From contig CAZCDK010000001.1 of assembly GCA_964497285.1 (NCBI GenBank), forward strand, positions 9,472-49,751: a stretch of DNA of 40,280 nt, in the 5' to 3' direction. The notes below the pieces were generated by a model. The model worked only from the letters and a program-made list of their open reading frames with translations. It was not told the origin of the DNA and ran no database searches. Positions 1 to 32,535 of the stretch are shown here, piece by piece (within the stretch, counting starts at the first letter, position 1; each line of letters begins with the position of its first letter). This stretch comes from an uncultured Anaerolineaceae bacterium (GTDB taxonomy: Bacteria; Chloroflexota; Dehalococcoidia; Tepidiformales; Tepidiformaceae). The position numbers were made by a program, and so were the translations under genes.

Positions 1-60
1 GGCGCAGATGGGCAAGTTCGGGGTTTCGGTTTGGCCTCCGGCCCCGTACCGTTGTTGGCC

Positions 61-1225: not shown

Positions 1226-2401
1226 ATGGCTATCAACCTTGGAGACAATCCGCACGAGGCAACCTGGCGCAAGGAAGTACGCGACTTCATCGCCAACGAA
1301 ACCCCGGCGGCGATGCGCCAGACTGGCGACGCCGGCGGAGAGGGCGCCTTGTTCGCGCGGGGCCGCGACGCCATGGGGGCGATGCTGGAGTGGCGCAACA
1401 AGATCATCGCGCGCGGCTGGATCGCCCCCGCCTGGCCGAAGAAGTACGGCGGCGCCGGCCTCGGCGTCCTCGAGCAGTTCGTCATGAGCGAGGAGTTTGC
1501 GGAAGCGGGCGTCCCGGGCAACCTCGGCGGCTTCGGCGTCATGATGATCGGCCCGACGCTCATCGAGCACGGCACCGAGGAGCAGAAGGAAGAGCACCTC
1601 ACACGCATCCTCAAGGGTGAAGTGGTCTGGTGCCAGGGCTACAGTGAGCCAGGCGCGGGCAGCGACCTGGCGGCGCTTCAGACGCGCGCCGTCCGTGACG
1701 GCGATGACTACGTGCTCAACGGCCAGAAAATCTGGACGACGGGCGCCCAGTTCTCCGATTGGATGTACATGCTGGCGCGCACCGACCCCGACGCGCCGAA
1801 GCACCGCGGCATTACCTATCTGCTCGTCAACATGAAAAGCCCGGGCGTGACTGTCCGTCCGCTCACGACGCTCGCGGGCGTGCAGACTTTCAACGAGGTG
1901 TTCTTCGAGGACGTGCGCGTGCCCATCCGCAACCGTGTCGGCGAAGAGAACCGCGGCTGGTACGTGGGAACCACGACGCTCGACTTCGAACGCAGTTCCA
2001 TCGGCAGCGCCGTCGGAGTGCGCAAGGCGCTCGAAGCGCTCATCCGCCAGGCCAAAGAAGGTGGCGAGGTCTCGTTCGAGCGCAATCCGCACGTCAAGAC
2101 GGAGTTCGTCGATCGCTGGATCGAGTGCGAAGTGGCCAAGATGCTGAGCTACCGTGTAGTCAACATGCAGGTTCGCGGCCTCATTCCCAACTACGAGGCA
2201 AGCATGTGCAAGCTGTTCTCCAGCGATCTGCAGCAGCGAATCGCGAACCTCAGCATGCACTTGAACGGGATGTACGGGAACGTTCGGGGCAGGGCGGCCA
2301 TGGGGTACATGCAGGCCGTAAGCTCGACCATTGCCGGCGGCACAACAGAAGTGCAGAAGGGGATCATCGCTACTCGCGGCCTGGGGCTCCCGCGCGGATA
2401 G
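1226..2401 (+). CDS. Acyl-CoA dehydrogenase (FadE-like)
   Basis: 391-aa ORF with WCQGYSEPGAGSDLAALQTRAVRDGDDYVLNGQKIWTTG and a C-terminal IAGGTTEVQKGIIA motif, both typical of acyl-CoA dehydrogenases. Close paralogue of 31336..32511. Confidence 0.9.
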   Translation: MAINLGDNPHEATWRKEVRDFIANETPAAMRQTGDAGGEGALFARGRDAMGAMLEWRNKIIARGWIAPAWPKKYGGAGLGVLEQFVMSEEFAEAGVPGNLGGFGVMMIGPTLIEHGTEEQKEEHLTRILKGEVVWCQGYSEPGAGSDLAALQTRAVRDGDDYVLNGQKIWTTGAQFSDWMYMLARTDPDAPKHRGITYLLVNMKSPGVTVRPLTTLAGVQTFNEVFFEDVRVPIRNRVGEENRGWYVGTTTLDFERSSIGSAVGVRKALEALIRQAKEGGEVSFERNPHVKTEFVDRWIECEVAKMLSYRVVNMQVRGLIPNYEASMCKLFSSDLQQRIANLSMHLNGMYGNVRGRAAMGYMQAVSSTIAGGTTEVQKGIIATRGLGLPRG

Positions 2402-2452: not shown

Positions 2453-2820
2453 AGCCTGAAGGCACGCACCAGCGCCGTCAACATCTGGACTGACCGCTCT
2501 GGCCCCCGATCGTTGGGGCTCAGAGCGAGACTGACTCGAAGGATCAGCAGCATGGCCGGACGGTTCGTTGGGACTCGGCGGAAACGCAGGCTGATTGCGC
2601 GCGCGGAATCGAGAGGCCCTATACTGGGCATCGAGAGCTTCAGGAGCTTTGTTGGGGGCACGCCATGAGCTGGCCAACCACCGCCGCGAGGCTGGGGGCC
2701 GCCGCTGGTACCGCCCGCGCGAGCCGGCGCACGGGTTCGGTGCTGGTTGAGGAGCCCGTGGCGACTTGGGTCTTCCTGCCCGGGGACAACGCCCGGGGGC
2801 ACCGTCCGGAGGGACCGGCT

Positions 2821-3573
2821 ATGGATGACGGCGCGGCGCTGGTGGCTGTCCTGGAGCGCTGCCCCTTGCTCGCTGGCCTGGCGACCAGGGAAGTGGCCGA
2901 GATCGCCTCGCTCTGCCGTTTTCACGCCGTCAGCGCGCAAACCGACGTGTTCGTCGAGGGACAGCGCTGCGACGGGCTCTGGGTCCTCGCCAATGGCCGC
3001 GTGCGGCTCTACCACTCGGCGGCAGACGGTCGCCAGCATGTCGTGAGCTTCCGAGGGCCGAGCTCGGCCCTCGAACTCGGCCCCGCGCTTGACCGGAGAA
3101 CCTACACCGCGACCGCGACTGCCCTTGAGGACTGCGTGCTTGTCTTCGTGCCCCGGCCGGTAATCTCCCAGCTCGCTCAAAACTACCCGGTGACCGTTCG
3201 GAACACGATCGACCAGCTGTGCCTCGAATTGCGGCAACGCGACATCGCCACCGCCGTCGCGACCCTCAAGGACGCCCGCGGCCGCATCGGCTGCGCCCTC
3301 CTCCAACTGGCGCGCCAATACGGAGTCGATACTCCGCAGGGATTGCGCATCGGCTTCCGCCTCACGCGCCAGGACATCGCCGACCGGTCGGGCGTGACTA
3401 TCGAGACGGCGATCCGCGTCCTTTCCGACCTGCAGCGCCAGGGGATACTGCGCACGCACGCGCAGATGATCGAAATCCTTGACATGGAGCGACTGCAGGA
3501 CCCGACGAACTGCGGCGAATGCCAGTTCGATTGCTCGGTGTTCGGCCCGAGCCTGTCGCTGACCGGGTCCTAG
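2821..3573 (+). CDS. Crp/Fnr-family transcriptional regulator with a C-terminal Cys cluster
   Basis: ORF 2665..3573. cNMP-binding-like N-terminal domain (LERCPLLAGL...GLWVLANGRVRLY). C-terminal helix-turn-helix (LTRQDIADRSGVTIETAIRVLSDLQRQGIL). ATG 2821 is preceded by GGAGGGA and gives the usual short N-terminus. The tail carries C-G-E-C-Q-F-D-C. Confidence 0.85.
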   Translation: MDDGAALVAVLERCPLLAGLATREVAEIASLCRFHAVSAQTDVFVEGQRCDGLWVLANGRVRLYHSAADGRQHVVSFRGPSSALELGPALDRRTYTATATALEDCVLVFVPRPVISQLAQNYPVTVRNTIDQLCLELRQRDIATAVATLKDARGRIGCALLQLARQYGVDTPQGLRIGFRLTRQDIADRSGVTIETAIRVLSDLQRQGILRTHAQMIEILDMERLQDPTNCGECQFDCSVFGPSLSLTGS

Positions 3574-3759: not shown

Positions 3760-5025
3760 ATGAGTGACGCCGCCGCCGCGAGCGGTTGGCGGGCGCGGTT
3801 TCCGGCTCTTCAGCACCGGGACTTCCGCATCCTCTGGTTCGGCATGTTCTTCTCCAGCGCCACGATGATGTTTCAGTTCTACGCTCAGGGCTGGTTCGTT
3901 CTCGGCATGACGGGTTCGGCGGGCCTGCTCGGGCTGCTTGGAGTTTCGCGTGGCACCGGCATGCTCCTGTTCAGCCTCTACGGCGGCGCCCTCGCGGACC
4001 GGATGGACCGCCGCACGCTCCTCATGGCGACCCAGTCCACGGCGTTTGCGGTCTACGGTCTGCTGTCGATCCTCGTGATCACGGACCACGTCGGGCTGTG
4101 GCTTGCATTCGCGCTAATCTTCGTCTCCGCATCGGTGGAGTCCATGGACGCGCCCGCGCGGCAGGCACTGGTGCCTCACCTCGTGCCACGGGAACACCTC
4201 CCGAATGCCGTTGCCCTGTTCATGGCAGCGCAGGTGAGTTCCTATGCATTCCTGCCGCCGATGGCCGGCCTGGCGATCGAAACCATTGGCGTGGGCGGCG
4301 CTTTCGCCCTGAGTCTCATCGGACATGCCGTAGTGGTGCTGGCCCTGCTGACGCTGAAGGTCCGGGCGAGACCGGCAAGGGGAGCATCGAGTGTCTTCCG
4401 CAGCGTGGGCGACGGGATCACCTATGCCGCGGGCCGGCCGCGCGTGCTCTGGGTGCTCGCGTTCGGCGTGTTCCTGGGGATACTCGGGTTCCCCATCATC
4501 AGTACGTTGGCACCGTACTGGATGAAGCATGAGCTGGGGCTGGGGGCCGGTGGCTGGACACTGATGGGATGGATGTGGGGGCTCGGGACGCTCGTGAGCA
4601 CAGTCACGCTCTCCGCCCGGAACACCCCGAGGCATCTCGGCCGGATCATCGTCGGCGCCACGACAGGATTCGCGCTGACGCTCGTGGTCTTCGGGTTGAC
4701 GAGGTCGCTGCCCCTCGCGGCCATCGCCTGGTCGCTGAATGGGACGTTCTTCACCGCGAACATGATCGCGTCGACTTCGCTGCTTCAGATAATCGTGGAG
4801 AACCAATACCTCGGTCGCGTTATGTCGCTTCGCGGGATCTCCTCCGCCGTCAACCAGATGGCGGCGGCACCGCTCGGGTCCCTGGCCGACGGTATCGGGA
4901 TCGGGCGCATGGTGCCGGCAGTGGCCGCCCTGCTCGCGGCGCTAGTTGTCGTGCCCACGTTGCTCAGCCCGACTGTGCGGACACTCGACGCCGAGGCCCA
5001 GCGCGACGCGGCCCACGGGGGATGA
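3760..5025 (+). CDS. MFS transporter
   Basis: 421-aa ORF with about 12 hydrophobic segments. N-terminus FRILWFGMFFSS and the loop motif GGALADRMDRR are typical of the MFS DHA3/EntS-like group. Confidence 0.85.
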   Translation: MSDAAAASGWRARFPALQHRDFRILWFGMFFSSATMMFQFYAQGWFVLGMTGSAGLLGLLGVSRGTGMLLFSLYGGALADRMDRRTLLMATQSTAFAVYGLLSILVITDHVGLWLAFALIFVSASVESMDAPARQALVPHLVPREHLPNAVALFMAAQVSSYAFLPPMAGLAIETIGVGGAFALSLIGHAVVVLALLTLKVRARPARGASSVFRSVGDGITYAAGRPRVLWVLAFGVFLGILGFPIISTLAPYWMKHELGLGAGGWTLMGWMWGLGTLVSTVTLSARNTPRHLGRIIVGATTGFALTLVVFGLTRSLPLAAIAWSLNGTFFTANMIASTSLLQIIVENQYLGRVMSLRGISSAVNQMAAAPLGSLADGIGIGRMVPAVAALLAALVVVPTLLSPTVRTLDAEAQRDAAHGG

Positions 5026-5190: not shown

Positions 5191-7974
5191 ATGGTCCTTG
5201 AATCCGCTGCCAGTCTTCAAGTGAGCTCAGAAGAGCGGTACCGCGAGCGCTGGTCGTGGGACACCGTGAACTGGGCAACCCACTGCATCGACTGCTACCC
5301 CGGCAACTGCCAGATGCGCGTTTATCTCAAGGATGGTCACGTCTTGCGTGAAGAGTCCGCAGGCGTCTACCCCACTGTCCAGGAAGGCGTCCCCGACATG
5401 AACCCGATGGGATGCCAGAAGGGCGTGGGCTGGACGCAGATGCTCGACTCCCAGGAGCGCCTGCTCTACCCGCTCAAGCGAGACGGCGAGCGGGGCTCCG
5501 GGCGGTGGAAGCGGATCAGCTGGGACCAGGCCGCAACGGAGATCGCGGACGCCGTGATCGACGCTGTCCAAGAGCTCGGACCCGAATCAGTGATGGCCCC
5601 ATCGGGCTGCAACCTCGGCACCTGGGGAGCCACGGGACGAGCGCAGTACATGCGCATCATCGGCGGGCTTACAACCGACCTGAACGCGGAGATGAACGAC
5701 TTCAGCCCGGGCCACTACCTGACGTGGGGCACGTTCGACCCGGTTAGCAGCATCGATGATTGGTTCCACGCCGAGCTGACCTTCATCTGGTTCCAGAACC
5801 CGTTCTACACGCGCATTCCGCACATCCACTACGCGCTGGAGAGCCGCTATGCAGGCGGGGAGGTCTGCACCGTTGCGCCCGACGCCTCGCCATCATCGAT
5901 CCACTCCGATTACTACGTGCCGGTGAGGATCGGGAGCGACGCCGCGTTCGCGCTCGGCATGGCCCAGGTTGTCATCGAAGAGGGCCTGGTCAACGAGACC
6001 TTCGTCCGCGAGCAAACCGACCTGCCTCTGCTGGTGAACCCCGCCACAAAACGGTACCTCCGCCAGTCGGACCTTGATGAGGGCGGAAGTGAGGACCAGC
6101 TCTACGCATGGGACGCCATTTCCAACAAGCCAGTTCCGGCACCAAAAGGAACTCTCTTCTGGGGCGCGGCCGCGCCCGCGCTCGAAGGCGAGTGGACCGT
6201 GCAGACGAAGAGCGGGCCGGTGAGGCTGACGACCGTCCATGCGCTGATGCGTGAACGCCTGAAGGAGTACACGCCGGAGAACGCCTCCACCATTTGCGGC
6301 ATCCACCCGGACACCATCCGAACCCTCGCACGCAAGGTTGCGTCAAAGCGAACCAATATCCTGTGCTGTCTCAACAACGCCGGCAAGCACTATCACGGCG
6401 ACCTGATCGAGCGCTCGCAACTGCTCCTCCTTGCGCTGACAGGCAACTGGGGACGGCACGGCACAGGCGTGCGCGCCTGGCTCAGTGGCCTCATGGACGG
6501 CTGGTTTACACCGCTGGCGAAGACGAAGCGAGGGCCCCAGGAACTGAGCGCAATGCTCGACACCATGGAACAGATGGTCGGCATGATTCAAGGCCAGGAT
6601 CCGACCCTCACCCGGGCCCAACTGGCGATCATGCAGGCGAAGATGCCCGGCCAGGGGCAGGGCACCGGGTTCGTACCGCCCGTATTCTGGTGGTATCGCC
6701 ACGCAGGCTACAAGGACGCATGGCAACGTCGTGAATGGCACGACCCGAGCATGGTGCGCGAGTTCGACGACTACTTCCAGGAAGCCGTCGCCAAGGGGTG
6801 GTGGCAGGGTGTCGACCTGCCGCGAGAGAACCAGCCCACGCGCGTCGTGATCGAGTGCGGCGGGAACTTCGTCCGCCGGACTCGCGGCGGCGGCAAGATG
6901 TTGCTTCAGCACCTCTTTCCAGGGCTAAAGATGGTGGCCACGCTCGACGTGCGCATGAGCGGGACGGCGATGCTGTCGGACATCGTCCTGCCGATTGCCC
7001 ACCAGTACGAGAAGCTTGGCTTCGGCATTCCAAGCACGCACACGATGAACCTCACCTTCAGCGATAAGTCGGTGGAACCGCCCGGCGAGGCAGTCGACGA
7101 GTGGGAGGCGTTCCGGCGGCTGGCGGAAAAGCTCGAAGAACGCGCCCGCGCCCGGGGAGTGCAGGTCTACAGCAACGCCCTCGGCGGCCAGCACGACCTC
7201 CAGAAAGCCCACAGCACGTTCACCGCCAACGGCCTGTGGGTCGACACGGAGGCCATGTTCGATGAGATGATCCGCGACAGCGCCCTCATCGGAACGCTGC
7301 CCCCCGACGCAAGCCTGGAAGAGGTGCGCCGGAAGGGGTTCTTCCGCTTCCAGGGACTCGGCATCTCGGCGCGGGCACTCGCACAGGCGACCGACCCCCA
7401 ACCGGACGAGACATTCGTTCCGTTCCGCAACCACGTCGAGAAGGGCGAACCCTATCCAACCCTCTGCCGGCGCGCCCAGTTCCTCATCGAACACGAGTGG
7501 TTCATCGAGGCCGACGAGCATCTGCCCCGGCACAAGGACGCCCCCGCGATGGGCGGCAGCTACCCGTTCCTGCTTACAAGCGGCCACAACCGCTGGAGCA
7601 TCCATTCACTCAACACGGCCAATCACCTCATGCTGGATACCCACCGGGGCACCCCGCACCTTGTGATGATCAAGCTCGATGCAGACCCACTTGGGATCGT
7701 CGACAACGAGACGGTTCGCGTCCACAACGACCAGGGCGACTTCGAGGTGCCGGTCAAGATCTCGCCAACGGCACAGCCCGGCCAGGTGATTGTCTACAAC
7801 GGCTTCGACACCTACCAGTTCCCCAGGTGGGCGTCCGTCAACGACGCCGAACCGGGCATGATCAAGTGGTTGCACCTGGCCGGTGGCTACGGGCATTTGC
7901 GCTACTGGGCGACGGAATGGCAGCCGTGCGCAGTGATGCGGGGAACACGCGTGGGAATCACCAGGCGCCCCTGA
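5191..7974 (+). CDS. Molybdopterin oxidoreductase catalytic subunit, type II DMSO-reductase family (NarG/EbdA-like), paralogue alpha1
   Basis: ORF 5107..7974. ATG 5191 is preceded by GAAGGAG. The N-terminus YRERWSWD..THCIDCYPGNC..NPMGCQKG is a NarG-like FS0 cluster motif. MNDF provides the candidate Asp ligand for Mo. At 927 aa it is in the EbdA/SerA/DdhA size class. No twin-arginine signal. Confidence 0.9.
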   Translation: MVLESAASLQVSSEERYRERWSWDTVNWATHCIDCYPGNCQMRVYLKDGHVLREESAGVYPTVQEGVPDMNPMGCQKGVGWTQMLDSQERLLYPLKRDGERGSGRWKRISWDQAATEIADAVIDAVQELGPESVMAPSGCNLGTWGATGRAQYMRIIGGLTTDLNAEMNDFSPGHYLTWGTFDPVSSIDDWFHAELTFIWFQNPFYTRIPHIHYALESRYAGGEVCTVAPDASPSSIHSDYYVPVRIGSDAAFALGMAQVVIEEGLVNETFVREQTDLPLLVNPATKRYLRQSDLDEGGSEDQLYAWDAISNKPVPAPKGTLFWGAAAPALEGEWTVQTKSGPVRLTTVHALMRERLKEYTPENASTICGIHPDTIRTLARKVASKRTNILCCLNNAGKHYHGDLIERSQLLLLALTGNWGRHGTGVRAWLSGLMDGWFTPLAKTKRGPQELSAMLDTMEQMVGMIQGQDPTLTRAQLAIMQAKMPGQGQGTGFVPPVFWWYRHAGYKDAWQRREWHDPSMVREFDDYFQEAVAKGWWQGVDLPRENQPTRVVIECGGNFVRRTRGGGKMLLQHLFPGLKMVATLDVRMSGTAMLSDIVLPIAHQYEKLGFGIPSTHTMNLTFSDKSVEPPGEAVDEWEAFRRLAEKLEERARARGVQVYSNALGGQHDLQKAHSTFTANGLWVDTEAMFDEMIRDSALIGTLPPDASLEEVRRKGFFRFQGLGISARALAQATDPQPDETFVPFRNHVEKGEPYPTLCRRAQFLIEHEWFIEADEHLPRHKDAPAMGGSYPFLLTSGHNRWSIHSLNTANHLMLDTHRGTPHLVMIKLDADPLGIVDNETVRVHNDQGDFEVPVKISPTAQPGQVIVYNGFDTYQFPRWASVNDAEPGMIKWLHLAGGYGHLRYWATEWQPCAVMRGTRVGITRRP

Positions 7975-8122: not shown

Positions 8123-10924
8123 ATGACTAGCCAAACCCCCATCGAACCCATCTACACGGGCTGGCAGGATCTCTACCGCCAAAAGTGGGACTGGGACGCC
8201 GTCTACTGGGGAACGCATTGCGTTGACTGCTACCCCGGCAACTGCCCGATGCGCGTCTACGTGAAGGACGGCATCGTCTGGCGCGAGGAACAGTCCGGGT
8301 CCTTCGACACGATCCAGCAGGGCGTGCCCGACTTCAACCCCATGGGCTGCCAGAAGGGCGCCTCCTGGAGCCAATCGCTCTACGGCCCCGATCGCGTCAT
8401 GTTCCCGCTGAAGCGCGCCGGCGAGCGCGGCGAAGGCAAGTGGAACCGCATCAGTTGGGATCAGGCTCTGAGCGAGATCGCAGACAAGCTCATCGACGCC
8501 ATCGAGGAACAGGGGCCCCACTCCACCATCCACGAAGGTACGCCGGGGATGGCCACCGCCGCTCCGACCGGCCGGTTCTTCTCGACCATTGGCGGCCTGG
8601 GCACAGACCTCAACGGGTCGATAAACGACTTCTCGATCGGCCTCTACGAGACTTTCGGGAAGTTTAGTCCGGTCTCGTCCGCCGATGACTGGTTCCATTC
8701 GGAAGTCGTGCTCATCTGGCACATGAACCCGGTCTACACCCGGATCCCCTTCTATCACTTCATCGCTGAAGCGCGTTACAACGGGGCCGAGGTCATCAAC
8801 ATCTCGCCCGACGTGAACCCGTCCCATCTCCACGCAGACATGCAGGTGCCAATTCGGGGCGCGTCGGACCAGGCGTTCGGACTCGCGATGGTTCAGGTGA
8901 TGTTCGAAGAGAACATCGCGAACTGGAAGTTCCTGAAGGAGCAGACCGACTTCGGGTACCTCGTGCGCACCGACACCCGCCGCTACCTCCGCCAGACGGA
9001 CGTCGAGGGCCAGGGCCGGGACGACCAGATGTACCAGTGGATTCCCGGCACCGGACTGAAGCTCGCCGACCGCGGCAGCGTCTTCCTCGGGGATGTGGAC
9101 ATCGCGCTGGAAGGCGTCTTCGACGTGAAGCTGGCCGACGGCTCGACCGTCCAGGTCACGCCCGTCTACTCGGTGCTGAAGAAGAAGCTCGACAGCGAGT
9201 ACACGCCCGAGAAACAGCAGGAGATCACCGGGGTCCACCCGGATGTCGTCCGCACAGTCGCCCGCAAGGTGGCAGCCAAGCGGACGAACATCATGCTTGG
9301 CTACAACGCCTGCAAGTTCTATCACGGCGACCTGATCGAGCGCGTACAGTGCCTCGTTCTCGCCGCCAGCGGGAATTGGGGCAAGCACGGGACCGGCATC
9401 CGCTGCTGGGCCGCCGGCATGCACGACGGCCTTTTCATCTCCTCCAACAAGCCCGGACCCGGCGCGGCCAACACGGAGATCATCCTCGCGGGCCGCGACG
9501 CTGCCGTGGCAGCAATGAAGGCAACCGATCCGACAATGACCACCGAGATCGCGGTGCGCGAGCTCGGTATGCTCGCCTCACGCTTCGAGATGGGTCCGGC
9601 CAACAGCCCCACGGGGTCGTCCACCATCCCGGCGATGATGTGGTACTTCCAGGGCGGCTATGACAAGCGCTGGAACACCCCCGGCTGGGGCGACGAGTCG
9701 CTCCCACGAAAGTTCGACGACTACTTCAACGAGGCCATCGAAAAGGGCTGGTGGCTCGGCTTGGACAAGCCGCGGCCGGAAAACCCCCCACGCGTGCTCA
9801 TTGAGTGCGGCGGAAACATGCTGCGGCGCACTCGCGGAGGCAAGGCGGCACTCCTGCCCACGCTTTGGCCCAAGCTCAGCGCGATCGTGACCATCGACTT
9901 CCGCATGAGCCAGACGGCGCTCTACGCGGACTATTTCCTCCCCGCGGCCCAGCACTATGAGAAGGTCTCGTTCCACATCCCTACGCCTCACGTGATGAAC
10001 CTCACGTTCTCCGACAAGGCGGCGCAGCCGGCAGGCGAAGCCAGGAACGAGTGGGAGATCTACTCCTCGCTGCTGGAGAAGCTCGCGGAACGGGCCCAGG
10101 CGCGCGGGCTCTCGGAATACACCGACAAGCGCGGCTACACCCGAAAATACGGCGAGTTGGCGTCCTACTACTCCATGAACGGGTACCTCCTCGACGAGGA
10201 CAAGATGGCCGACGAAGCCGTTCGTGACTCGGCGTTGGCGGGAACGCTGCCCATGGGCACGAACCTCAAGACCATGCGCGAGAAGGGCCACGTACGCTTC
10301 ATCGACTGGGGCCTCACGCCGATGGCGCTTGCCCAGGCTTCCCCGATTTCCGCGACCGAAACGCATGTTCCGTTCCGCGACAACACCGAGTCTGGGCATC
10401 CCTTCCCCACGTACGCGCGGCGCGCGCAGTTCTACATCGACCACGAATGGTTCCTGGAGGCAGGCGAAGAACTCCCCGTTTGGAAGCCGAACCCCAAGAT
10501 GGGCGGCGACTATCCCCTGGGTCTCACCTCCGGACACAATCGCTGGTCCATCCACGCCATGAACCAGAGCAACAACGTCATCCTCGGCACCCACCGCGGC
10601 GAACCCGACGTCTCGATCAATCCCGACGACGCGGCCGAGCGAGGCGTGAAGGACGGGGATCTCATCCGCGTCTTCAACGACGTGAGTTCCTTCAAGGTTC
10701 GGGCCAGGGTGGCCCCAAACGTGAAGCCGGGCCAGGTCATCTCCTACAACGGCTGGGCCGGCTTCCAGTACACGGACTGGTCGGGCGCGAACGAGATCGA
10801 GCCCGGAATGGTCAAGTGGATCGGGCTGGCCGGGGGCTATGGCCACCTGCGCCACTTGGGCACGGAGTGGCAGCCGGTTCCCAGCGATCGCTGGGTCCGC
10901 TGCGACTTCGAGAAGGTCAACTAG
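8123..10924 (+). CDS. Molybdopterin oxidoreductase catalytic subunit, type II DMSO-reductase family, paralogue alpha2
   Basis: 933-aa ORF. YRQKWDWD..THCVDCYPGNC..NPMGCQKG FS0 motif and INDF candidate Asp ligand. Collinear with alpha1 over its whole length. No Tat motif, and no Shine-Dalgarno sequence visible upstream. Confidence 0.9.
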   Translation: MTSQTPIEPIYTGWQDLYRQKWDWDAVYWGTHCVDCYPGNCPMRVYVKDGIVWREEQSGSFDTIQQGVPDFNPMGCQKGASWSQSLYGPDRVMFPLKRAGERGEGKWNRISWDQALSEIADKLIDAIEEQGPHSTIHEGTPGMATAAPTGRFFSTIGGLGTDLNGSINDFSIGLYETFGKFSPVSSADDWFHSEVVLIWHMNPVYTRIPFYHFIAEARYNGAEVINISPDVNPSHLHADMQVPIRGASDQAFGLAMVQVMFEENIANWKFLKEQTDFGYLVRTDTRRYLRQTDVEGQGRDDQMYQWIPGTGLKLADRGSVFLGDVDIALEGVFDVKLADGSTVQVTPVYSVLKKKLDSEYTPEKQQEITGVHPDVVRTVARKVAAKRTNIMLGYNACKFYHGDLIERVQCLVLAASGNWGKHGTGIRCWAAGMHDGLFISSNKPGPGAANTEIILAGRDAAVAAMKATDPTMTTEIAVRELGMLASRFEMGPANSPTGSSTIPAMMWYFQGGYDKRWNTPGWGDESLPRKFDDYFNEAIEKGWWLGLDKPRPENPPRVLIECGGNMLRRTRGGKAALLPTLWPKLSAIVTIDFRMSQTALYADYFLPAAQHYEKVSFHIPTPHVMNLTFSDKAAQPAGEARNEWEIYSSLLEKLAERAQARGLSEYTDKRGYTRKYGELASYYSMNGYLLDEDKMADEAVRDSALAGTLPMGTNLKTMREKGHVRFIDWGLTPMALAQASPISATETHVPFRDNTESGHPFPTYARRAQFYIDHEWFLEAGEELPVWKPNPKMGGDYPLGLTSGHNRWSIHAMNQSNNVILGTHRGEPDVSINPDDAAERGVKDGDLIRVFNDVSSFKVRARVAPNVKPGQVISYNGWAGFQYTDWSGANEIEPGMVKWIGLAGGYGHLRHLGTEWQPVPSDRWVRCDFEKVN

Positions 10925-10940
10925 GAGGAAGAGGGACACG

Positions 10941-11513
10941 ATGAAAGTCGCAAAGGTGAACGCAGGATCCGACCTCGCCGACCCGGCCGCGCAGGCCTGG
11001 AGCAGCGTGGCCGCGGAAGCGGTATCACTCGCTCCCGTGGCGCTTGCTGCTCAGCCGACGGAGTACATCCGCGAGGCCTGGGCCAGCCGCCCCTACGGCC
11101 AGACAGCCGAGGCGAAGGTGGCCGTCGCCTCCGACGGCAGCAAGCTCTATGTGCGCGTGGAGTGGGCCGACGACGCCAGGCCGAACACCGAATTCCAGGA
11201 CGCGGTCGGCGCCGTCCTCGGCGACGGCACCCTCGCCACCCTCGGAGACGCGAAGGCTCCACTCACGTTGTGGTATTGGGAAAACGGCCGCGGTGCCCTC
11301 AACCTCGTCGCCAAGGGACCGGGCGTGTTTGGCAAGGCCGACGCCGGAGCCGTCAGCGGGGCTGGTGCAATCAGCGACGGGAAGTGGGCCGCTGTCCTGA
11401 GCGGACCGGCCTCGGCCGCCAACGGCAAACTCGGAATCGCCGTGTGGAACGGCTCGAACGAAGAACGGGCGGGCCTCGCCGCCGTCAGCCGCGCCTGGCT
11501 GCCGCTCGAGTAG
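10941..11513 (+). CDS. EB_dh/DOMON-like gamma subunit homologue with no possible haem ligands (gamma1)
   Basis: ATG 10941 follows AGGAGGAAGAGGG. The 190-aa product aligns by eye with gamma2 (QPTEYIREAW / QPSAYVQKAW; LWYW / AWHW; GIAVWNGSNEERAGL / GIAVWSGAASERAGL). No signal peptide. Apart from the initiator Met it has no Met, His or Cys. Confidence 0.8.
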   Translation: MKVAKVNAGSDLADPAAQAWSSVAAEAVSLAPVALAAQPTEYIREAWASRPYGQTAEAKVAVASDGSKLYVRVEWADDARPNTEFQDAVGAVLGDGTLATLGDAKAPLTLWYWENGRGALNLVAKGPGVFGKADAGAVSGAGAISDGKWAAVLSGPASAANGKLGIAVWNGSNEERAGLAAVSRAWLPLE

Positions 11514-11531: not shown

Positions 11532-12566
11532 ATGACTGCAAACGGAACGCGCCAGATCGCCTGGGTCTTCGACCTCAACAAGTGCATCGGCTGCCAGACA
11601 TGTTCGGTGGCGTGCAAAGTCCTCTGGACCCGCGACGAGGGTGAGAAGCACGAGTGGTGGTGCTCAGTGAACACCCAGCCCGGCCTGGGCACTCCCAAGA
11701 ACTGGGAACAGATGGGCGGCGGTGTCGATCCGAAGTCGGGCAAGCCCGCGGCGGGCCACCAGCCCACCCGCGGTGAGTTCGGCGGCGGCTTCGACTTCAA
11801 CTACTACGAGGTCTTCTACGGCGGCACCGCCGGCAAGGCTCACCTTGAACCGCAGGCCCCACGCGAAGACCGCTGGGCCATGAACTGGGACGAGGACCAG
11901 GGCGCCGGCGAGTGGCCCAACTCGTACTTCTTCTACCTGCCTCGCCTGTGCAACCACTGCACCAATCCCACCTGCATGGAGGCTTGCCCCACGGGCGCCC
12001 TCAGCAAGCGGGACGACGGCCTCGTCTTGCGCGATGAGGACGTCTGCATGGGCGATCGCTTCTGCATGGAAGCCTGCCCCTACAAGAAAATCTACTTCAA
12101 CTACGAGCGCCACGTTTCCCAGCACTGCATCGGCTGCTTCCCTCGCATCGAAGCGGGCGTGGCCCCGGCTTGCGTGCGCCAGTGCCCGGGTCGCGCCGTC
12201 TTCGTCGGCTACATCGACGAGGAGGGCACCCCCGTCCACGACCTCGTGAAGAAGTGGAAGATCGCCCTTCCGCTGCATGCAGAGGCCGGCACCGGACCGA
12301 ACGTCTTTTACGTTCCCCCGCTCTCGCCCTACCGGTTGAACGACGACTTCAGTATCGACTACCAGACGCCGCGCATCCCGCGCGAGTACCTGGAATCGCT
12401 CTTCGGCCCGGAGGTCAATGGGGCCCTTTCCACGCTCAGCGGCGAGATGCAGAAGGTCCGCGAGGGCGGATCATCGGACATGCTCAAGACACTCATCGCC
12501 TACAAGTGGAAGGAATTGCTCGGACCCTTCACCGTCGATCCCGCCGACATCGTCCAAACGGTCTAG
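11532..12566 (+). CDS. Iron-sulfur beta subunit (NarH/EbdB-like, four-cluster ferredoxin), beta1
   Basis: Four cluster motifs: CIGCQTCSVAC, CNHCTNPTCMEACP, CMGDRFCMEACP (spacing of a 3Fe-4S group) and CIGCFPRIEAGVAPACVRQCP. The WW..N..PG insertion is typical of type II beta subunits. RBS AAGGAG. Confidence 0.9.
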   Translation: MTANGTRQIAWVFDLNKCIGCQTCSVACKVLWTRDEGEKHEWWCSVNTQPGLGTPKNWEQMGGGVDPKSGKPAAGHQPTRGEFGGGFDFNYYEVFYGGTAGKAHLEPQAPREDRWAMNWDEDQGAGEWPNSYFFYLPRLCNHCTNPTCMEACPTGALSKRDDGLVLRDEDVCMGDRFCMEACPYKKIYFNYERHVSQHCIGCFPRIEAGVAPACVRQCPGRAVFVGYIDEEGTPVHDLVKKWKIALPLHAEAGTGPNVFYVPPLSPYRLNDDFSIDYQTPRIPREYLESLFGPEVNGALSTLSGEMQKVREGGSSDMLKTLIAYKWKELLGPFTVDPADIVQTV

Positions 12567-12581: not shown

Positions 12582-13268
12582 ATGTTCGTCTACTCACTCG
12601 CCGGTCTCCAGATCGACGGCGAAGCCAGCCAGGAGATGGAGCTTCCGGACAACGAAACCACGGCTCGCCTGGGTGTCTACCAGGTTCTGGCCCGTCTGAT
12701 GGCGTGTCCCGACGCCGACTCCCATGGGGCGGCCTTGGGCGGCGAGTGGCCCGGGCGGTTGGCCCACGATGCCAAGCTGCTTCCGTTTTCCTTCGATTTC
12801 GAGACCGCCTCGATCGATGCGGCAGTCTCCGAATCCAATTTCCAGGCCGAATACCTGCGGCTGTTCGAAGTTGGATCCGGCGAAGGCGGGCCCGGAGCGC
12901 CGCTGTTCGGCGGAGTGTATGGCAGCGGCGACCGGATGAAGAAGCTCGAAGAGGTGGTTCGCTTCTACGAGTACTTCGGACTGAAGGCATCGGCCGAGGA
13001 TCCGCGGCCGGCGGACCACCTCGCCACTGAGATGGAATTCATGAAGTTCTTGACGCTCAAGGAGGCGACCTCCGCGTCGCCCCGGCTGCAGGCCTCGTTC
13101 CGGCGGGCGCAGCATGACTTCTTGGAGCGCCAGCTGACTACGTGGCTACCCGAGCTTTCGAACCGGACCAGGGCGCAGAACCCAATGCCGTTCTGGCAGT
13201 GGGCCGTGGACCGGGCGAACGCCTTTGCCGGGGCCGACTTGGCCTACGTTCAGAGCGTGATGGGGTAG
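12582..13268 (+). CDS. TorD/NarJ-family maturation chaperone (delta1)
   Basis: 228 aa. YQVLARL...EYLRLFEVG....P..GGVY...RFYEYFGL....PADHLATEMEFMKFL matches the nitrate-reductase delta/TorD family pattern. RBS AGGAGG. Confidence 0.85.
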   Translation: MFVYSLAGLQIDGEASQEMELPDNETTARLGVYQVLARLMACPDADSHGAALGGEWPGRLAHDAKLLPFSFDFETASIDAAVSESNFQAEYLRLFEVGSGEGGPGAPLFGGVYGSGDRMKKLEEVVRFYEYFGLKASAEDPRPADHLATEMEFMKFLTLKEATSASPRLQASFRRAQHDFLERQLTTWLPELSNRTRAQNPMPFWQWAVDRANAFAGADLAYVQSVMG

Positions 13269-13316: not shown

Positions 13317-16061
13317 ATGACTATTCCTGCTGACGGGCAGTACCGGCAGCGCTGGAGTTGGGATCGTGTGACCTTCGGGACGCACTGTCTCAACTGCCTC
13401 GCCACCTGCCCCTACCGTGTCTACTCCCGCAACGGGAAAGTGCTGTTCGAAGAACCGGTCGGGACTTTCCCCCAAATCGACGAGGGCGTACCGGACTTCA
13501 ATCCCATGTCCTGCCAGAAGGGTAGCGCTTGGAGTGTCCAGCTCGACACGCCCGACCGTCTGAAGTACCCCCTGCGTCGCAAAGGAGAGCGCGGCTCAGG
13601 GGAGTGGGAGCGGATCTCCTGGGACGAAGCACTCACGGAGATCGCCGATGCCCTGATCGAGGCGATCGACTTGGAGGGCCCTGAGTCCATCGTCTTCGAG
13701 GAGACGGTCGAAGGCGGACTGCTCACGCAGGCCCCCTATCTCCGCTTTGCCGGCATGCTCGGCGCGGTCACCCTCGATGCGAATGGCCTCATCAACGACT
13801 TCCCCGCAGGGCACCACATCACCTGGGGCAAATTCTCCTGCGCGAGCTCCATGGACGACACGTTCCATTCCGAGCTCCTCCTCATCTGGCACTCGAACCC
13901 CGCCTACACGTGGATTCCTTACGCGCACTTCATCACCGAGGCTCGGTACCACGGATCGAAGGTCGTGTGCATCGCGCCCGACTTCAGCCCCTCCGCGCCC
14001 ATGGCAGACGCCTATGTCCCGATCAAGGTCGCGTCGGACGCCGCGTTCGCGCTCGCAATGTGCCAGGTGATCATCTCCGAGGGCCTGTTCGACCGGGACT
14101 TCGTCCTCTCCCAAACAGATCTGCCACTGCTGGTGAACCCGGCTACGCGCCGCTTCCTTCGTGGTTCGGAGGTCACAGCCGGCGAACGCGAGGACCAGTT
14201 CTACTGGTGGGACGCCGCCTCCGCGAAGATCGAGCAGGCCCCGCGCGGGACCCTGGAGATCGAGGATGTCAGCCCGGCCCTCGAAGGGCGCTGGCGCGTC
14301 ACGACGCTCGATGGCGAAGTCGAAGTCACGACGGTCTGGGAACTGCTCAAGGAACACCTGGGGCAATACACCCCCGAGGCGGTGAGCGGCATCTGCGGCG
14401 TCAGCCCACAGGTCATGCGCGACCTTGCCCGGGAAGTGGCCTCCAAGCGGACGAAGATCCTGGAAGGCTTCAACACACCCAAGTTCTACCACGGCGATCT
14501 GATGGAACGGGCGATGATCCTGCTCCTCGGCCTGACCGCGAACTGGGGGCGCAAGGGCACAGGCATCCAGGGGCTCGCACTCGCCGGCATGGACGGCTAC
14601 ATGCTCTTCGGCATGAAGCAGAAGCGCGGAGTGGCCGAGACCATTCGCGTTATGGAAGGCGTCGAGGGGGCGGTCGAGGCCCTGCGCTCACAGGACCCCG
14701 AGGCGTCGGACGAGATCCTCGGCTACGAACTCCTCCAGCGCGGCCTCGTGTCAGGCACCGCCAGCCCGCCAGCTTTCTTCCACTTCTATCACTGCGGCTA
14801 CAAAGACACGTGGAACACGCCCCAGTGGTCAGATCCATCGATGACGCGCTCGTTCGAGGACTACGTCGGCGACGCCGTGCGACGCGGGTGGTGGGGCGGC
14901 CTGGTGAAGCCCGGGCCGAGTTCCGATCCCCAGGTGCTCTTCATCGTGGCGACCAACCCGATCAGGCGCCAGCGCGGCGGCACGGACACACTCGCCAAGA
15001 CTCTCTGGCCCAAGCTGGAAAAGATCGTCGTTGTCGAAAACCGGATGAGTGCCACCGCATTGCAGGCGGACATCGTGCTTCCGGCGGCGATGCAATACGA
15101 GCGCATCAATCTCCAGTACGCCATCACGCACTCCTTCTCGGTCGGGTTTTCAGACAAGGCCGTGGAGCCCCAGGGCGAAGCGAAGACTGAGTGGGAGATC
15201 TTCAAGGCGCTCTCGAAGGTGATGCAGGAGCGCGCCATCGCCCAGGGCGTGGTCGAGTACCTCGACGGCCGGCGGCAACCCAAGCGGCTTGATGGCCTGT
15301 ACAACTCCTTCACCCTCAACGGTGCCTACGAGAACGAGGAAACCGTCGTCGAGGAGTGGCTTCGCGACAGCATCGAGGCGGGGACGTTGCCCGAAAACGG
15401 CACCCTCAGCCATCTTCGCGAGAATGGGACAGCGCGGTTCATCGATCTTGGCATGTTCGCGCCCGGTCTCTCGCTGGCGGCCGATGTCGAGTCGGACCAG
15501 ACGGACACAGCATTCCAGTGGTACGTCAACGACTTCGGGCCCTACCCGACGCTCACCCGCCGGTCACAGTCTCTGATCGACCACCCGTGGTTCGCCGAGG
15601 CAGGCGAGGACTTGCCCACGCACAAGGACAACCCGAAGCAGGGCGGCGACTACCCGCTCGTGATCACGAGCGGCCATTCCCGGTGGACAGTCCACGCCGT
15701 GTCGATGGGAAACCACGTGCTGCACGGCACGCACCGGGGCGAGCCACTCGGGATCTTGAACGCCTCGGACGCCGCCGCGCGCGGCATCGCGGACGGTGAC
15801 GTAATCGAGGTGTTCAACGACAGGGGCAACTACAATATTCGATGCCGCGTGGCTCCCCGGGTGCGTCCTGGCCAGGTGATCGTGTACAACGGCTGGGAGC
15901 CGCACATGTTCAAGGACTGGAAGGGCGCCAATGAAGTGGAGCCCGGCATGGTCAAGTGGCTGCATCTTGTGAGCCGCTACGGGCATTTGCGTTACCTGCC
16001 GTTCGGCTGGCAGCCAGTCCCTGCCGATCGGTCCGTCTTTGTGGATGTGAGGAAAGCATGA
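13317..16061 (+). CDS. Molybdopterin oxidoreductase catalytic subunit, type II DMSO-reductase family, paralogue alpha3
   Basis: 914-aa ORF. YRQRWSWD..THCLNCLATC..NPMSCQKG FS0 motif and INDF candidate Asp ligand. No Tat motif. Its TGA stop overlaps the next gene's ATG (ATGA). Confidence 0.9.
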   Translation: MTIPADGQYRQRWSWDRVTFGTHCLNCLATCPYRVYSRNGKVLFEEPVGTFPQIDEGVPDFNPMSCQKGSAWSVQLDTPDRLKYPLRRKGERGSGEWERISWDEALTEIADALIEAIDLEGPESIVFEETVEGGLLTQAPYLRFAGMLGAVTLDANGLINDFPAGHHITWGKFSCASSMDDTFHSELLLIWHSNPAYTWIPYAHFITEARYHGSKVVCIAPDFSPSAPMADAYVPIKVASDAAFALAMCQVIISEGLFDRDFVLSQTDLPLLVNPATRRFLRGSEVTAGEREDQFYWWDAASAKIEQAPRGTLEIEDVSPALEGRWRVTTLDGEVEVTTVWELLKEHLGQYTPEAVSGICGVSPQVMRDLAREVASKRTKILEGFNTPKFYHGDLMERAMILLLGLTANWGRKGTGIQGLALAGMDGYMLFGMKQKRGVAETIRVMEGVEGAVEALRSQDPEASDEILGYELLQRGLVSGTASPPAFFHFYHCGYKDTWNTPQWSDPSMTRSFEDYVGDAVRRGWWGGLVKPGPSSDPQVLFIVATNPIRRQRGGTDTLAKTLWPKLEKIVVVENRMSATALQADIVLPAAMQYERINLQYAITHSFSVGFSDKAVEPQGEAKTEWEIFKALSKVMQERAIAQGVVEYLDGRRQPKRLDGLYNSFTLNGAYENEETVVEEWLRDSIEAGTLPENGTLSHLRENGTARFIDLGMFAPGLSLAADVESDQTDTAFQWYVNDFGPYPTLTRRSQSLIDHPWFAEAGEDLPTHKDNPKQGGDYPLVITSGHSRWTVHAVSMGNHVLHGTHRGEPLGILNASDAAARGIADGDVIEVFNDRGNYNIRCRVAPRVRPGQVIVYNGWEPHMFKDWKGANEVEPGMVKWLHLVSRYGHLRYLPFGWQPVPADRSVFVDVRKA

Positions 16062-17515
16062 GTGCACCAACCCCTATTGCCCTGACCCCGGGAGAACACG
16101 CTGCCATCGCGCGGCTGTTCGAAGGTGGAAGGCCGTACTTCTCGCTGCTATCGACGCTCCGGACCAGGCGCATTGGCATGGGCTACCGCAGCGAAACGGG
16201 CGTGGAAGAGACGTTCGATTGGTCGAGCCGCCTGGCGGTACGCCAGCGCGAAGGCCCGTTGGCATACACGTCACCGGCACCGCCGGCGCCGCTTTCGGAA
16301 GTGGAAGAGGCACTCATTGCCTGGGCGGCCCTTGGTCCCAACGGTGTGATCGCCGCCGATGTGGCCGTGAACGGCGACCTTTCGAGCCTCCTCTACTGGG
16401 CCGGGCGTACAGCGCCGGGCTCCAGCAACGACATGGCGGTCAACCTCTTCATCATCAACGACCAGGGCGTGCACCTGTACCGTCCCGGGCCCGAGCGGAT
16501 GGCCCCTGTAGAGATCAGGGGCCCGGATGACTACTGGAAAATCCTCTACTGGTACCGCAACTGCCGAACAAGGATCATGGACCGCCGCCCCGACATCGGC
16601 TACATGACCGCCCCACCCGGCACCCACAACGTGAACTCGATGGGACCTCTCCAGTACAACGCGAACCGGCCCGGAAGCACATGGTTCCTCCCGGTCGGGG
16701 ACGTCGGATTGGAGTGGGTGAACCAGCTCTTGTCGTCGTACCAGTTCTCCGGCTTCTACCTCCAGGACCCGGACACCGACAAGCCGGCTGGTTGCGATCA
16801 GTGGATCCGGCCGGGCTTCCTTGAAGTCGGCTTCCCCCTCCCCACTTTCGACGAGCTCGCGATCATGCAACACGTCTCCGAAGCCGCCTGCGTCGTCCAG
16901 AACATGCGGGTCGCCTGCGAGGCCATGGGCCTCGGCGCCTGGGCAATCGGCGGCTACTCCGACGACATGTTGCTGGGGGCGTACCCCGAAATCGCCCAGG
17001 GCCTCGGCTTTGCCCACCTTGAACGCGACCCGGCCAGGAATCCCTCCCGGACGGCGACCTGCCAGGGTCTCCCCGGTCTCCTGGATGCGACCATGACCCC
17101 CTCTCGCAAGTTCCCGAACGCCGAAGCGCTGGTCACATACGTTGCTCAGCTTCGATACCAGCGCGGAGCGCAGCTCGCCCGGGAGGACAACTGGGCGCTC
17201 GCGGCGGGGGGACCGTTCAACGACCAAACCCTGCAGAAGATCATGGAGCACCCCCGAACACATATCCCCGATTGGGTCATCCAGGCGGCGATTGACACGG
17301 TGAAGTACATCGTCGAGAAGTACGGCTGCGCCCCGGCATACATCAACCCGATGCGAGCCAAGTTCTCGACGCAAGTGCATCACGTCGACCTGGACTACTA
17401 CCGGCAATTCCACGCCGGAGACGGCGAACCGTTCCTTGTGACAACCCAACTCAAAAGCCATTTCACGGACTGGCACCCTGGTGTGGCAGACCCGTATGAG
17501 AGGAGTGCCCGGTAG
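16058..17515 (+). CDS. Large nitroreductase-superfamily-like protein of unknown function
   Basis: ORF 15956..17515. ATG 16058 overlaps the alpha3 stop codon. N-terminal LRTRRIGMGYR resembles the RRSxR FMN motif. LSEVEEALIAWAALG and VQNMRVACEAMGLGAWAIGGY resemble the nitroreductase-fold core helices. At 485 aa it is about twice the size of a classical nitroreductase. The fold call is tentative. Confidence 0.65.
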   Translation: MSAPTPIALTPGEHAAIARLFEGGRPYFSLLSTLRTRRIGMGYRSETGVEETFDWSSRLAVRQREGPLAYTSPAPPAPLSEVEEALIAWAALGPNGVIAADVAVNGDLSSLLYWAGRTAPGSSNDMAVNLFIINDQGVHLYRPGPERMAPVEIRGPDDYWKILYWYRNCRTRIMDRRPDIGYMTAPPGTHNVNSMGPLQYNANRPGSTWFLPVGDVGLEWVNQLLSSYQFSGFYLQDPDTDKPAGCDQWIRPGFLEVGFPLPTFDELAIMQHVSEAACVVQNMRVACEAMGLGAWAIGGYSDDMLLGAYPEIAQGLGFAHLERDPARNPSRTATCQGLPGLLDATMTPSRKFPNAEALVTYVAQLRYQRGAQLAREDNWALAAGGPFNDQTLQKIMEHPRTHIPDWVIQAAIDTVKYIVEKYGCAPAYINPMRAKFSTQVHHVDLDYYRQFHAGDGEPFLVTTQLKSHFTDWHPGVADPYERSAR

Positions 17516-18636: not shown

Positions 18637-18652
18637 AGGTGGTATAGGTCCC

Positions 18653-27267: not shown

Positions 27268-27294
27268 TACCCAAATCTGAAGGAGAAGACCCGA

Positions 27295-28083: not shown

Positions 28084-28121
28084 GAAGAGCTCACGGCGGG
28101 ACAAGAAAGGACGATTTCGGA

Positions 28122-29354: not shown

Positions 29355-29432
29355 CCTCCGGGGCGACAAGGGCTCGCGTGCATCCCATTCGGGCCCTTCG
29401 TCTTTCGCCTGAAGGCCGGGAAGGAGACGCTT

Positions 29433-32511: not shown

Positions 32512-32535
32512 GCGATGACCTCGGTGTCTGTTGAT

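Follow-up and report, generated by a model that had tools for sequence, protein, structure and literature searches.

The characterised enzymes of the ethylbenzene dehydrogenase (EBDH) group, which comprises the ethylbenzene, p-cymene and steroid C25/C26 dehydrogenases together with the selenate, chlorate and dimethyl sulfide enzymes, have been described as periplasmic and dependent on twin-arginine translocation (Tat) (PMC8840923, PMC7411048, PMC10100899, PMC10609526). In the prototype, EbdABCD of Aromatoleum aromaticum (PDB 2IVF), the alpha subunit of the periplasmic enzyme carries a Tat pre-sequence of ∼50 residues (PMC8840923), and the haem b of EBDH, like that of Kuenenia stuttgartiensis NxrC, is ligated by Met and Lys (PMC8387239). 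The S25DH/S26DH enzymes of Sterolibacterium denitrificans were likewise assigned to the periplasm from their Tat sequences and use cytochrome c or ferricyanide as acceptor (PMC7411048). Here we describe a 40,280-nucleotide stretch of contig CAZCDK010000001.1 (hereafter, the window) that encodes four type II dimethyl sulfoxide reductase alpha subunits (alphaA to alphaD) and two gamma-beta-delta sets (B and D). Its enzymes miss two defining features of periplasmic EBDHs: the Tat leader and, in the B operon, the Met/Lys haem site.

The window (64–68% G+C) was mapped by calling open reading frames (ORFs) with guidance from third-codon-position G+C (GC3) and by Pfam scans; 30 ORFs were scanned, covering every likely gene (Table 1). 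An initial annotation, made from the letters alone, had dealt with the stretch 8123–11513, which holds alphaB and gammaB, and had counted three alphas where the map has four. AlphaA, alphaB and alphaC belong to a cassette with the order [MFS]-alpha-alpha-gamma-beta-delta-alphaC-unk485-CopD-CopD-AMP-binding, where MFS denotes a major facilitator superfamily transporter and unk485 a protein discussed below; alphaD lies in a second operon.

N termini of the catalytic subunits

All four alphas contain the Pfam domains PF00384 and PF01568. The best solved relative of alphaB is EbdA (2ivf_A), followed by PcrA and NarG. AlphaA, alphaB and alphaC score ∼720 bits against EbdA (E ∼1e-215) and 440–470 bits against PcrA, whereas the window alphas reach only 190–270 bits against NarG, to which they are distantly related. 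In an alignment to EbdA residues 59–264, all four retain the Asp ligand of Mo (EbdA Asp223) as well as the His and three Cys that ligate the Fe-S cluster FS0 (H-x3-C-x3-4-C plus the Cys of GC(Q/P)). Both betas have 15–16 Cys in cluster motifs of 4+4+3+4, which fits three [4Fe-4S] clusters and one [3Fe-4S] cluster. AlphaA, alphaB and alphaC are catalytic subunits of the EBDH clade in which the ligands of Mo and of the Fe-S cluster are preserved, and they share with EbdABCD the alpha-gamma-beta-delta gene set, the NarJ-like delta, and a gamma without a leader of its own. One difference within the catalytic subunit is EbdA His192, which has no aligned counterpart: it falls in a gap column in the alignment of all four alphas and opposite Pro in the pairwise alphaB–EbdA alignment. 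The NCBIfam cutoffs were missed throughout, at 865.9 (alphaB), 846 (alphaC) and 916.2 (alphaD) bits for TIGR03479 (cutoff 984.75); at 770.7, 742 and 553 bits, respectively, for the EbdA equivalog NF042978 (cutoff 2000); and at 41.3 (gammaB) and 105.3 (gammaD) bits for the EbdC equivalog NF042980 (cutoff 400). Because the equivalog cutoffs are missed so widely, alphaB is not an EbdA orthologue. From these relationships, we consider EBDH-type hydroxylase chemistry somewhat probable for the window enzymes.

The reading frames leave little space for a leader. Going upstream in frame, a stop codon is reached 9 codons before the start of alphaB, 6 before that of alphaC, 19 before that of alphaD and 33 before that of alphaA (whose frame opens at 5089), and none of these four stretches encodes twin arginines with a hydrophobic region behind them. 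AlphaB residue 9 aligns to EbdA residue 59, so that EbdA extends ∼50 residues further at its N terminus, and the first ∼37 positions of the TIGR03479 alpha model, which cover the leader, are unmatched. Shine–Dalgarno-like sequences precede several of the called starts, such as those of alphaA, gammaB, betaB and deltaB. When all six frames of the window were scanned for a Tat motif with a hydrophobic region, the only matches lay inside the MFS and AMP-binding genes; applied to 1.19 Mb of related loci, the scan flagged none of the cassette genes.

The same N termini recur in relatives. The best 120 homologues of alphaB (60–95% identity), whose hosts are Dehalococcoidia, Tepidiformaceae, Thermoflexaceae, Acidimicrobiia, Pseudomonadales, other Gammaproteobacteria and Acidobacteria, all lack a leader and begin with a hydrophilic N terminus that places the FS0 His ∼17–50 residues from the first residue. 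Orthologues of alphaA to alphaD in 71 loci have no leader in their stop-bounded upstream frames. As a positive control, we scanned all 1.84 billion representative proteins and examined the nearest 50%-identity clusters, which split into two kinds: some, for example P0361, P0362, P0366 and P0375, are leaderless, and others carry RR(E/G)FLK with a hydrophobic region, among them P0370 (MRYEITRREFLKLTGCGAACLALG) and the EbdA-like P0365 (DLSRRGFLQRSAALALSAG). Since these outgroups were recognised as Tat-bearing, the method is able to see leaders where they are present. The distribution indicates that the Tat leader has been lost in certain lineages of an otherwise mostly Tat-bearing family, and, judged by the proteins as encoded, the window alphas cannot be Tat substrates, a trait that is conserved.

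The initial annotation had reported no Tat signal on the alphas and no in-frame extension with an RRxFLK motif, and both statements withstood the upstream stops, the motif scans and the comparison with homologues. It had also suggested checking orthologues for conserved N termini, and there the short leaderless starts proved to be conserved. Its estimate that the alphas begin 15–25 residues before the FS0 motif was slightly low, the FS0 His lying at residues 31, 32, 23 and 57 in alphaA to alphaD.

High-G+C genomes yield long spurious frames and error-prone start calls, so mis-called starts, frameshifts or assembly errors might in principle mask real leaders. This explanation is effectively refuted by the in-frame stops 6–19 codons 5′ of alphaB, alphaC and alphaD, by the ribosome-binding sites before several called starts, and by the recurrence of this picture across independently assembled genomes of many samples and phyla; a leader could now be hidden only in an exon-like piece, and bacteria do not splice such pieces. 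Long open frames 5′ of some orthologue starts were considered as hidden leaders and rejected: they are rich in Arg, Pro and Ala and have neither a Tat consensus nor a hydrophobic region, as expected for spurious open frames in high-G+C DNA. One such frame, 5′ of an alphaC-type gene (locus L040), holds a tandem peptide repeat, (GIGTASTA)n, which is probably a noncoding high-G+C simple repeat.

Export by another route deserves more weight, as the beta and gamma subunits of EBDH leave the cell without leaders of their own, which makes hitch-hiking normal in this family, and the window shows just 40 kb of the genome. The complexes might thus be carried by a Tat substrate encoded elsewhere or take a nonclassical route. 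We regard this as very unlikely: the usual signal carrier is the alpha subunit, and the four alphas and all orthologues examined are leaderless; no cassette gene in 66 genomes carries a Tat signal; and the trait is kept in diderm and presumably monoderm hosts alike. AlphaD, moreover, shows a remnant-signal pattern of the kind found in nonexported enzymes (PMC10609526, citing Ize et al. 2009).

With the Tat leader consistently absent, a cytoplasmic or cytoplasm-facing location is the best prediction, and the core proposal of the initial annotation, cytoplasmic EBDH-type enzymes, stands in that form. We hold an orientation toward the cytoplasmic side to be highly probable on these sequence grounds. 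The host belongs to the Chloroflexi, which are generally regarded as monoderm; if it is so, a soluble “periplasmic” enzyme would be unexpected there anyway. Type II enzymes with a cytoplasm-facing active site have precedents in NarGHJI and in NxrAB of the Nitrobacter/Nitrolancea type. NarGHJI differs in having the di-haem cytochrome b NarI as its anchor; the window has no NarI homologue, and its third subunit is a soluble EB_dh-fold protein.

Gamma subunits and the haem b site

Neither gammaB (MKVAKVNAG...) nor gammaD (MTTQNVTAKK...) has an N-terminal hydrophobic segment, and the best 120 gammaB homologues all start MK(V/I)AK.... The lack of a Sec signal on the gammas had been noted before and taken as a sign of cytoplasmic location, on the premise that characterised EB_dh-type gammas have a Sec leader. 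The observation is correct, but the premise fails for EbdC of ethylbenzene dehydrogenase, which has no Sec leader: the SEQRES record of 2ivf_C comprises 214 residues, begins MKAKRVPGGKELLLDL, and has its residue 1 aligned to gammaB residue 1, and the NCBIfam EbdC equivalog model (214 positions) aligns from position 1. The 2ivf entry lists the alpha chain at 976 aa, pre-sequence included, which indicates that it records precursor sequences; the leaderless state of EbdC is read from PDB SEQRES and NCBIfam model lengths. A Sec leader on gamma is a feature of SerC, ClrC and DdhC, not of the prototype EbdC, which presumably exits the cell together with its Tat-targeted alpha. Because the prototype has none either, the lack of a Sec leader on gamma says nothing about localisation.

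The two gammas differ at the haem site. The ligands are Met108 and Lys201 in EbdC and Met155 and Lys305 in K. stuttgartiensis NxrC; gammaB has Leu101 and Ala in place of the EbdC pair. In the 121 sequences made up of gammaB and its 120 homologues, the Lys position is occupied by Ala in 104, by Gly in 17 and by Lys in none, so that EbdC and gammaD alone carry Lys in the alignment; the Met column, counted over the full set of 123, reads L77/M32/F7/I7. The gammaB family has no His, Met, Lys or Cys conserved at ≥90%. Since the Lys ligand is lost throughout the family and the Met ligand in most members, gammaB appears from its sequence to be probably a haem-free protein of the EB_dh fold and not a cytochrome. 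GammaD, in contrast, retains both ligands (TMG...GLK; alignment to 2ivf_C with E 2.6e-23).

The profile scores agree with this division. GammaD exceeds the 33.3-bit gathering score of Pfam EB_dh (PF09459) with 77.3 bits, whereas gammaB remains below it with 31.1 bits over profile positions 2–75 only; both fall under the TIGR03477 cutoff. The label “EB_dh gamma,” given earlier to both proteins, has to be qualified for gammaB, which is under threshold and has no haem ligands. Separately, at least one gammaD-type gene, that of locus L025, has Ala at the Lys ligand position (GIASHTPA), and haem-ligand loss may have happened more than once. Our count of Met and Lys among gammaD orthologues is contaminated by gammaB-type matches and is indicative only.

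A conserved cassette and the path of the electrons

The initial annotation had asked where the electrons go, and the question is a genuine one. It was right that there is no NarI-type anchor, since the Pfam scans of the 30 window ORFs turned up no family of a NarI-type di-haem cytochrome b. It had seen no membrane partner, yet two proteins of the cassette, CopD1 and CopD2, are predicted to have four transmembrane (TM) helices each and are co-conserved with unk485.

The cassette order is identical in metagenome-assembled genomes (MAGs) of three distant lineages: one from Dehalococcoidia (88% identity), one from marine Gammaproteobacteria and one from Acidimicrobiales. A scan with an unk485 alignment, taking one genome per GTDB species, found 66 loci, all in MAGs, spanning Chloroflexota, Acidimicrobiia/Microthrixaceae, Thermoleophilia, Acidobacteria, and Alpha- and Gammaproteobacteria; we propose that the cassette has spread horizontally among phyla. 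Activated-sludge and anammox reactors are the source of many of the MAGs. Counting only loci with enough flanking DNA, CopD1 and CopD2 lie 3′ of unk485 in 55 of 56, the AMP-binding gene lies 3′ of CopD2 in 54 of 54, and an alpha gene lies immediately 5′ of unk485 in 40 of 48. Two gene junctions in the window overlap, the alphaC stop with the unk485 start (ATGA) and the unk485 stop with the GTG start of CopD1, which indicates translational coupling. In several Acidimicrobiia loci, the alphaC-unk485-CopD-CopD-AMP-binding unit stands apart from alphaB-gamma-beta-delta, and in four loci of Acidimicrobiia/Microthrixaceae (L035, L042, L054 and L065) the unit alphaC-unk485-CopD-(CopD)-AMP-binding has no beta or gamma gene in flanks of up to 10 kb per side. 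Gene order thus suggests that alphaC, unk485, CopD1 and CopD2 may form a self-contained Mo-flavo-membrane complex without the classical beta-gamma module.

Unk485 has no Pfam or NCBIfam match at threshold. Its family is narrow (171 sequence clusters, found only in MAGs and mostly annotated “hypothetical protein”). An AlphaFold2 model built from a 46-sequence alignment (predicted local distance difference test [pLDDT] 83.7, predicted template modeling score [pTM] 0.88) matched 3hj9, 3hoi and 8cqs in Foldseek (E 4e-5 to 4e-4, probability 1.0) as well as ThcOx, BmdC and McbC. The target-normalised TM-scores are just 0.5–0.6, and PF00881 reaches only 15 bits (cutoff 23.5), so the model points to a divergent, enlarged fold of the FMN (flavin mononucleotide)-nitroreductase superfamily with putative FMN. 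The motif RTRR.G.G at residues 35–42 is invariant and resembles, in position and sequence, the N-terminal GRRRSMRF motif of the canonical nitroreductase encoded at 27295..28083. We rejected RTRR (residues 35–38) as a Tat motif, because it is not followed by a hydrophobic region and sits where the model is folded with confidence. His442, His468 and His473 are invariant in unk485, and Cys335 is nearly so.

CopD1 and CopD2 are 34% identical. Each has an invariant His in TM1 (CopD1 His20, CopD2 His9; 60–65 orthologues) and, where TM1 ends, a Met-Glu pair that is likewise invariant (CopD2 Met23-Glu24), followed by a conserved AQ...PP.Q loop that reads ME..PAQ..PPAQAQ in CopD1. By the positive-inside rule, this loop and the Lys/Arg-rich loop between TM3 and TM4 are cytoplasmic. 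CopD1 exceeds the gathering score of CopD (PF05425; 32.1) with 36.3 bits and CopD2 falls short of it with 24.0 bits; the match spans TM2–TM4 only, leaving the His-bearing TM1 outside. By analogy, the pair are the strongest candidates for the membrane anchor that is otherwise missing: SdhC/SdhD and the haem-free DmsC offer the comparison of two paralogous small membrane proteins with TM His residues beside an Fe-S wire. Those proteins have no sequence relationship to the CopD/DUF4149 family found here, and we hold the anchor role of the pair only tentatively.

We lean slightly toward a reading in which the window encodes a leaderless, Mo-dependent and oxygen-independent C-H hydroxylase cassette that faces the cytoplasm and passes its electrons on through unk485 and the CopD pair. 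AlphaA, alphaB and alphaC would then be interchangeable catalytic subunits that act on related substrates and owe their maturation to the NarJ-like delta, and at least alphaA and alphaB would share one beta-gamma module. The S25DH/S26DH paralogues of S. denitrificans set a precedent, with several paralogous alphas serving one pathway in a beta-oxidation-like neighborhood and with water-dependent hydroxylation of alkyl/isoprenoid side chains, the chemistry that we suppose here; no unk485 or CopD-like partner has been described for them. Some homologues are labeled “steroid C-25 hydroxylase” by the automatic annotation of the Joint Genome Institute (JGI). The substrate is probably lipid- or isoprenoid-like and could be imported by the MFS transporter, activated by the AMP-binding protein, or both. 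An alkyl or isoprenoid carbon would be hydroxylated with water at the Mo center as part of a lipid/acyl-CoA (coenzyme A) catabolic pathway, and the electrons would pass FS0 and then FS1–FS4. The usual last step, from a high-potential haem b to a periplasmic cytochrome c, would be absent, because gammaB has no haem ligands. Electrons might instead leave FS4 (for alphaC, possibly FS0) through unk485, CopD1/CopD2 or both to the quinone pool, with the CopD pair acting as an anchor that contributes one TM1 His per subunit and possibly holds a haem in between, like SdhC/SdhD or NarI. That a haem-free gamma scaffold, a nitroreductase-fold flavoprotein and a heterodimeric CopD-fold anchor feeding quinone make up an undescribed architecture seems to us doubtful, though worth stating.

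The same proteins can be read without a membrane route. Soluble cytoplasmic complexes could pass electrons to a soluble or flavin acceptor, with unk485 as an FMN oxidoreductase toward O2, or with electron-transferring flavoprotein (ETF) or ferredoxin encoded elsewhere; the CopD-like proteins would then serve metal handling or substrate uptake and channeling. The leaderless alphas, the FMN-nitroreductase fold of unk485, the Pfam CopD (copper resistance) label of the membrane proteins and the neighboring acyl-CoA dehydrogenases, normally ETF users, all fit such a scheme. S. denitrificans, moreover, pairs a flavin delta-24 desaturase with the Mo C26 hydroxylase S26DH2 (PMC11061730). That desaturase belongs to another family, and we rejected kinship with unk485, as it is limonene-dehydrogenase-like and not nitroreductase-like. 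Against a soluble acceptor, high-potential acceptors are scarce in the cytoplasm, given EbDH cofactors at +70 to +260 mV (PMC8840923), and the translational coupling and near-complete co-occurrence of alphaC, unk485 and the CopD pair favor one physical complex. On balance, we judge the soluble scheme unlikely, without dismissing it.

Several points count against the cassette reading with its membrane route. The Met of the haem site is kept in 32 of the 123 aligned gamma sequences, and gammaB could conceivably bind haem with one unusual ligand. In EbDH, FS4 lies at +70 mV, haem at +254 mV and Mo at +99/+259 mV (PMC8840923); at such potentials, transfer from FS4 to menaquinone would run uphill. 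The nitroreductase-fold flavoprotein could equally be a substrate desaturase instead of an electron carrier. CopD-family proteins are annotated as copper-handling (Pfam: copper resistance), and our AlphaFold2 model of CopD1, built from a two-sequence alignment, reached a pLDDT of 51 and was discarded. All carriers are MAGs, and hitch-hiking on an unlinked Tat substrate outside the 40-kb window, improbable as it is, would still be compatible with what the window holds.

The full-text literature searched yielded no account of an EBDH-like clade that is leaderless or cytoplasmic, of an EB_dh gamma without haem or of an association between unk485 and CopD; subscription-journal reviews lay outside the search, and prior mention is possible. 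If the clade does face the cytoplasm, water-dependent hydroxylation of unactivated C-H bonds would not be bound to the periplasm and cytochrome c, charged or CoA-bound intermediates would be accessible as substrates, and the chemistry would be possible in Chloroflexota and Actinomycetota hosts assumed to be monoderm. The proposed route would also define a new electron-exit module. The metagenome labels “ethylbenzene dehydrogenase” and “steroid C25 hydroxylase,” used as markers of anaerobic hydrocarbon and sterol degradation, would then need rereading. The haem-ligand-free gamma and the conserved unk485/CopD trio offer testable handles on the electron route.

The second operon and the surrounding genes

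AlphaD is ∼36% identical to alphaA, alphaB and alphaC and scores 568 bits against PcrA and 527 bits against EbdA. The earlier description of all alphas as EBDH-type accordingly applies to alphaA, alphaB and alphaC, which are closest to EbdA, and not specifically to alphaD. Its N-terminal peptide, SLRRLKPADAGAHLAEIL / SLRRLKPADAGAHLAEILSRPYEYR at 25592..25480 (−), is conserved in orthologues as L(K/R)RL.P.DA..L..LLS.PYEYR, with a basic pair and no hydrophobic region, and cluster P0374 is of the same type. NarJ binds a remnant Tat peptide on the nonexported NarG (PMC10609526, citing Ize et al. 2009). By that analogy the alphaD peptide is a candidate remnant Tat or chaperone-binding signal, a reading that fits because a NarJ-like deltaD is present.

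We take alphaD-gammaD-betaD-deltaD to be, probably, a separate cytoplasmic type II enzyme that would retain haem b. Its affinity to PcrA, its NarG-like N-terminal peptide and a cytoplasmic orientation as in NarGHI and Nitrobacter-type Nxr raise the alternative that the window enzymes, or at least alphaD-gammaD-betaD, are NarG-like reductases in which electrons would pass inward from quinol to an oxyanion or to an N- or S-oxide. We find this improbable: alphaA, alphaB and alphaC are clearly nearest EbdA, Pfam scans found neither a NarK-type oxyanion transporter nor a NarI in the window, and the gene context is one of acyl-CoA and lipid catabolism.

Downstream of the Mo-enzyme genes, a block at 26062..30428 and 31336..32583 encodes acyl-CoA dehydrogenases, an SCP2-type thiolase, a CoA transferase and the canonical nitroreductase; further genes on that side encode an aminotransferase, a GSDH-like protein and a methylmalonyl-CoA mutase. 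The acyl-CoA/thiolase block suggests beta-oxidation-like processing of the hydroxylated product. On the upstream side, the MFS transporter gene adjoins the alphas in loci of Chloroflexi, Alpha- and Gammaproteobacteria, and its MFS_3/EntS-like product is a candidate substrate importer on the basis of family and position.

Table 1. Genes of the Mo-enzyme region in the window, with coordinates, strand and basis of assignment
Feature	Positions	Strand	Basis
SDR (short-chain dehydrogenase/reductase)	31..861	+	Pfam
Acyl-CoA dehydrogenase	1226..2401	+	Pfam
Crp/Fnr-family regulator (cNMP_binding + HTH_Crp_2), upstream of cassette	2665..3573	+	Pfam
MFS_3/EntS-like transporter	3760..5025	+	Pfam, NCBIfam, synteny
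alphaA, no beta/gamma of its own	5191..7974	+	Pfam; Mo-ligand Asp, FS0 His/Cys3 present
alphaB, 933 aa, Molybdopterin/Molydop_binding	8123..10924	+	2ivf_A E 1.6e-215
gammaB, EB_dh-like, 190 aa	10941..11513	+	Pfam 31.1 bits; alignment to 2ivf_C
betaB, four-cluster ferredoxin subunit (FS1–FS4)	11532..12566	+	Fer4_11; 16 Cys
deltaB, NarJ/TorD-family maturation chaperone	12582..13268	+	PF02613, 68.2 bits
alphaC, first gene of core alphaC-unk485-CopD1-CopD2-AMP-binding	13317..16061	+	2ivf_A E 4.7e-215; synteny
unk485, 485 aa	16058..17515	+	AlphaFold2 model + Foldseek; 171 homologues
CopD1, 4-TM CopD/DUF4149-like	17515..18075	+	Pfam; conservation in 60 orthologues
CopD2, CopD1 paralogue	18109..18636	+	34% identity to CopD1; orthologue conservation
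Short AMP-binding (adenylate-forming) protein	18596..19819, likely start ATG 18653	+	PF00501
deltaD, NarJ-family chaperone, second operon	20372..21034	−	PF02613, 69.2 bits
betaD, four-cluster ferredoxin subunit	21000..22055	−	Fer4_11; 15 Cys
gammaD, EB_dh haem-b-type subunit	22078..22698	−	PF09459, 77.3 bits
alphaD, type II alpha, different clade	22695..25592	−	Pfam; PcrA/EbdA scores

The AMP-binding protein at the end of the cassette is short (∼390–407 aa; 372–389 aa across loci). Only PF00501 was detected in it, at residues 180–375, and no C-terminal AMP-binding_C domain; it may adenylate its substrate without forming a thioester or need a partner. At the other end, the Crp/Fnr-family regulator gene is also found upstream of the cassette in the closest MAGs (loci L001 and L002). 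The regulator has no N-terminal FNR cysteine cluster and ends in CGECQFDC (C-x2-C-x3-C), a possible redox- or metal-sensing tail.

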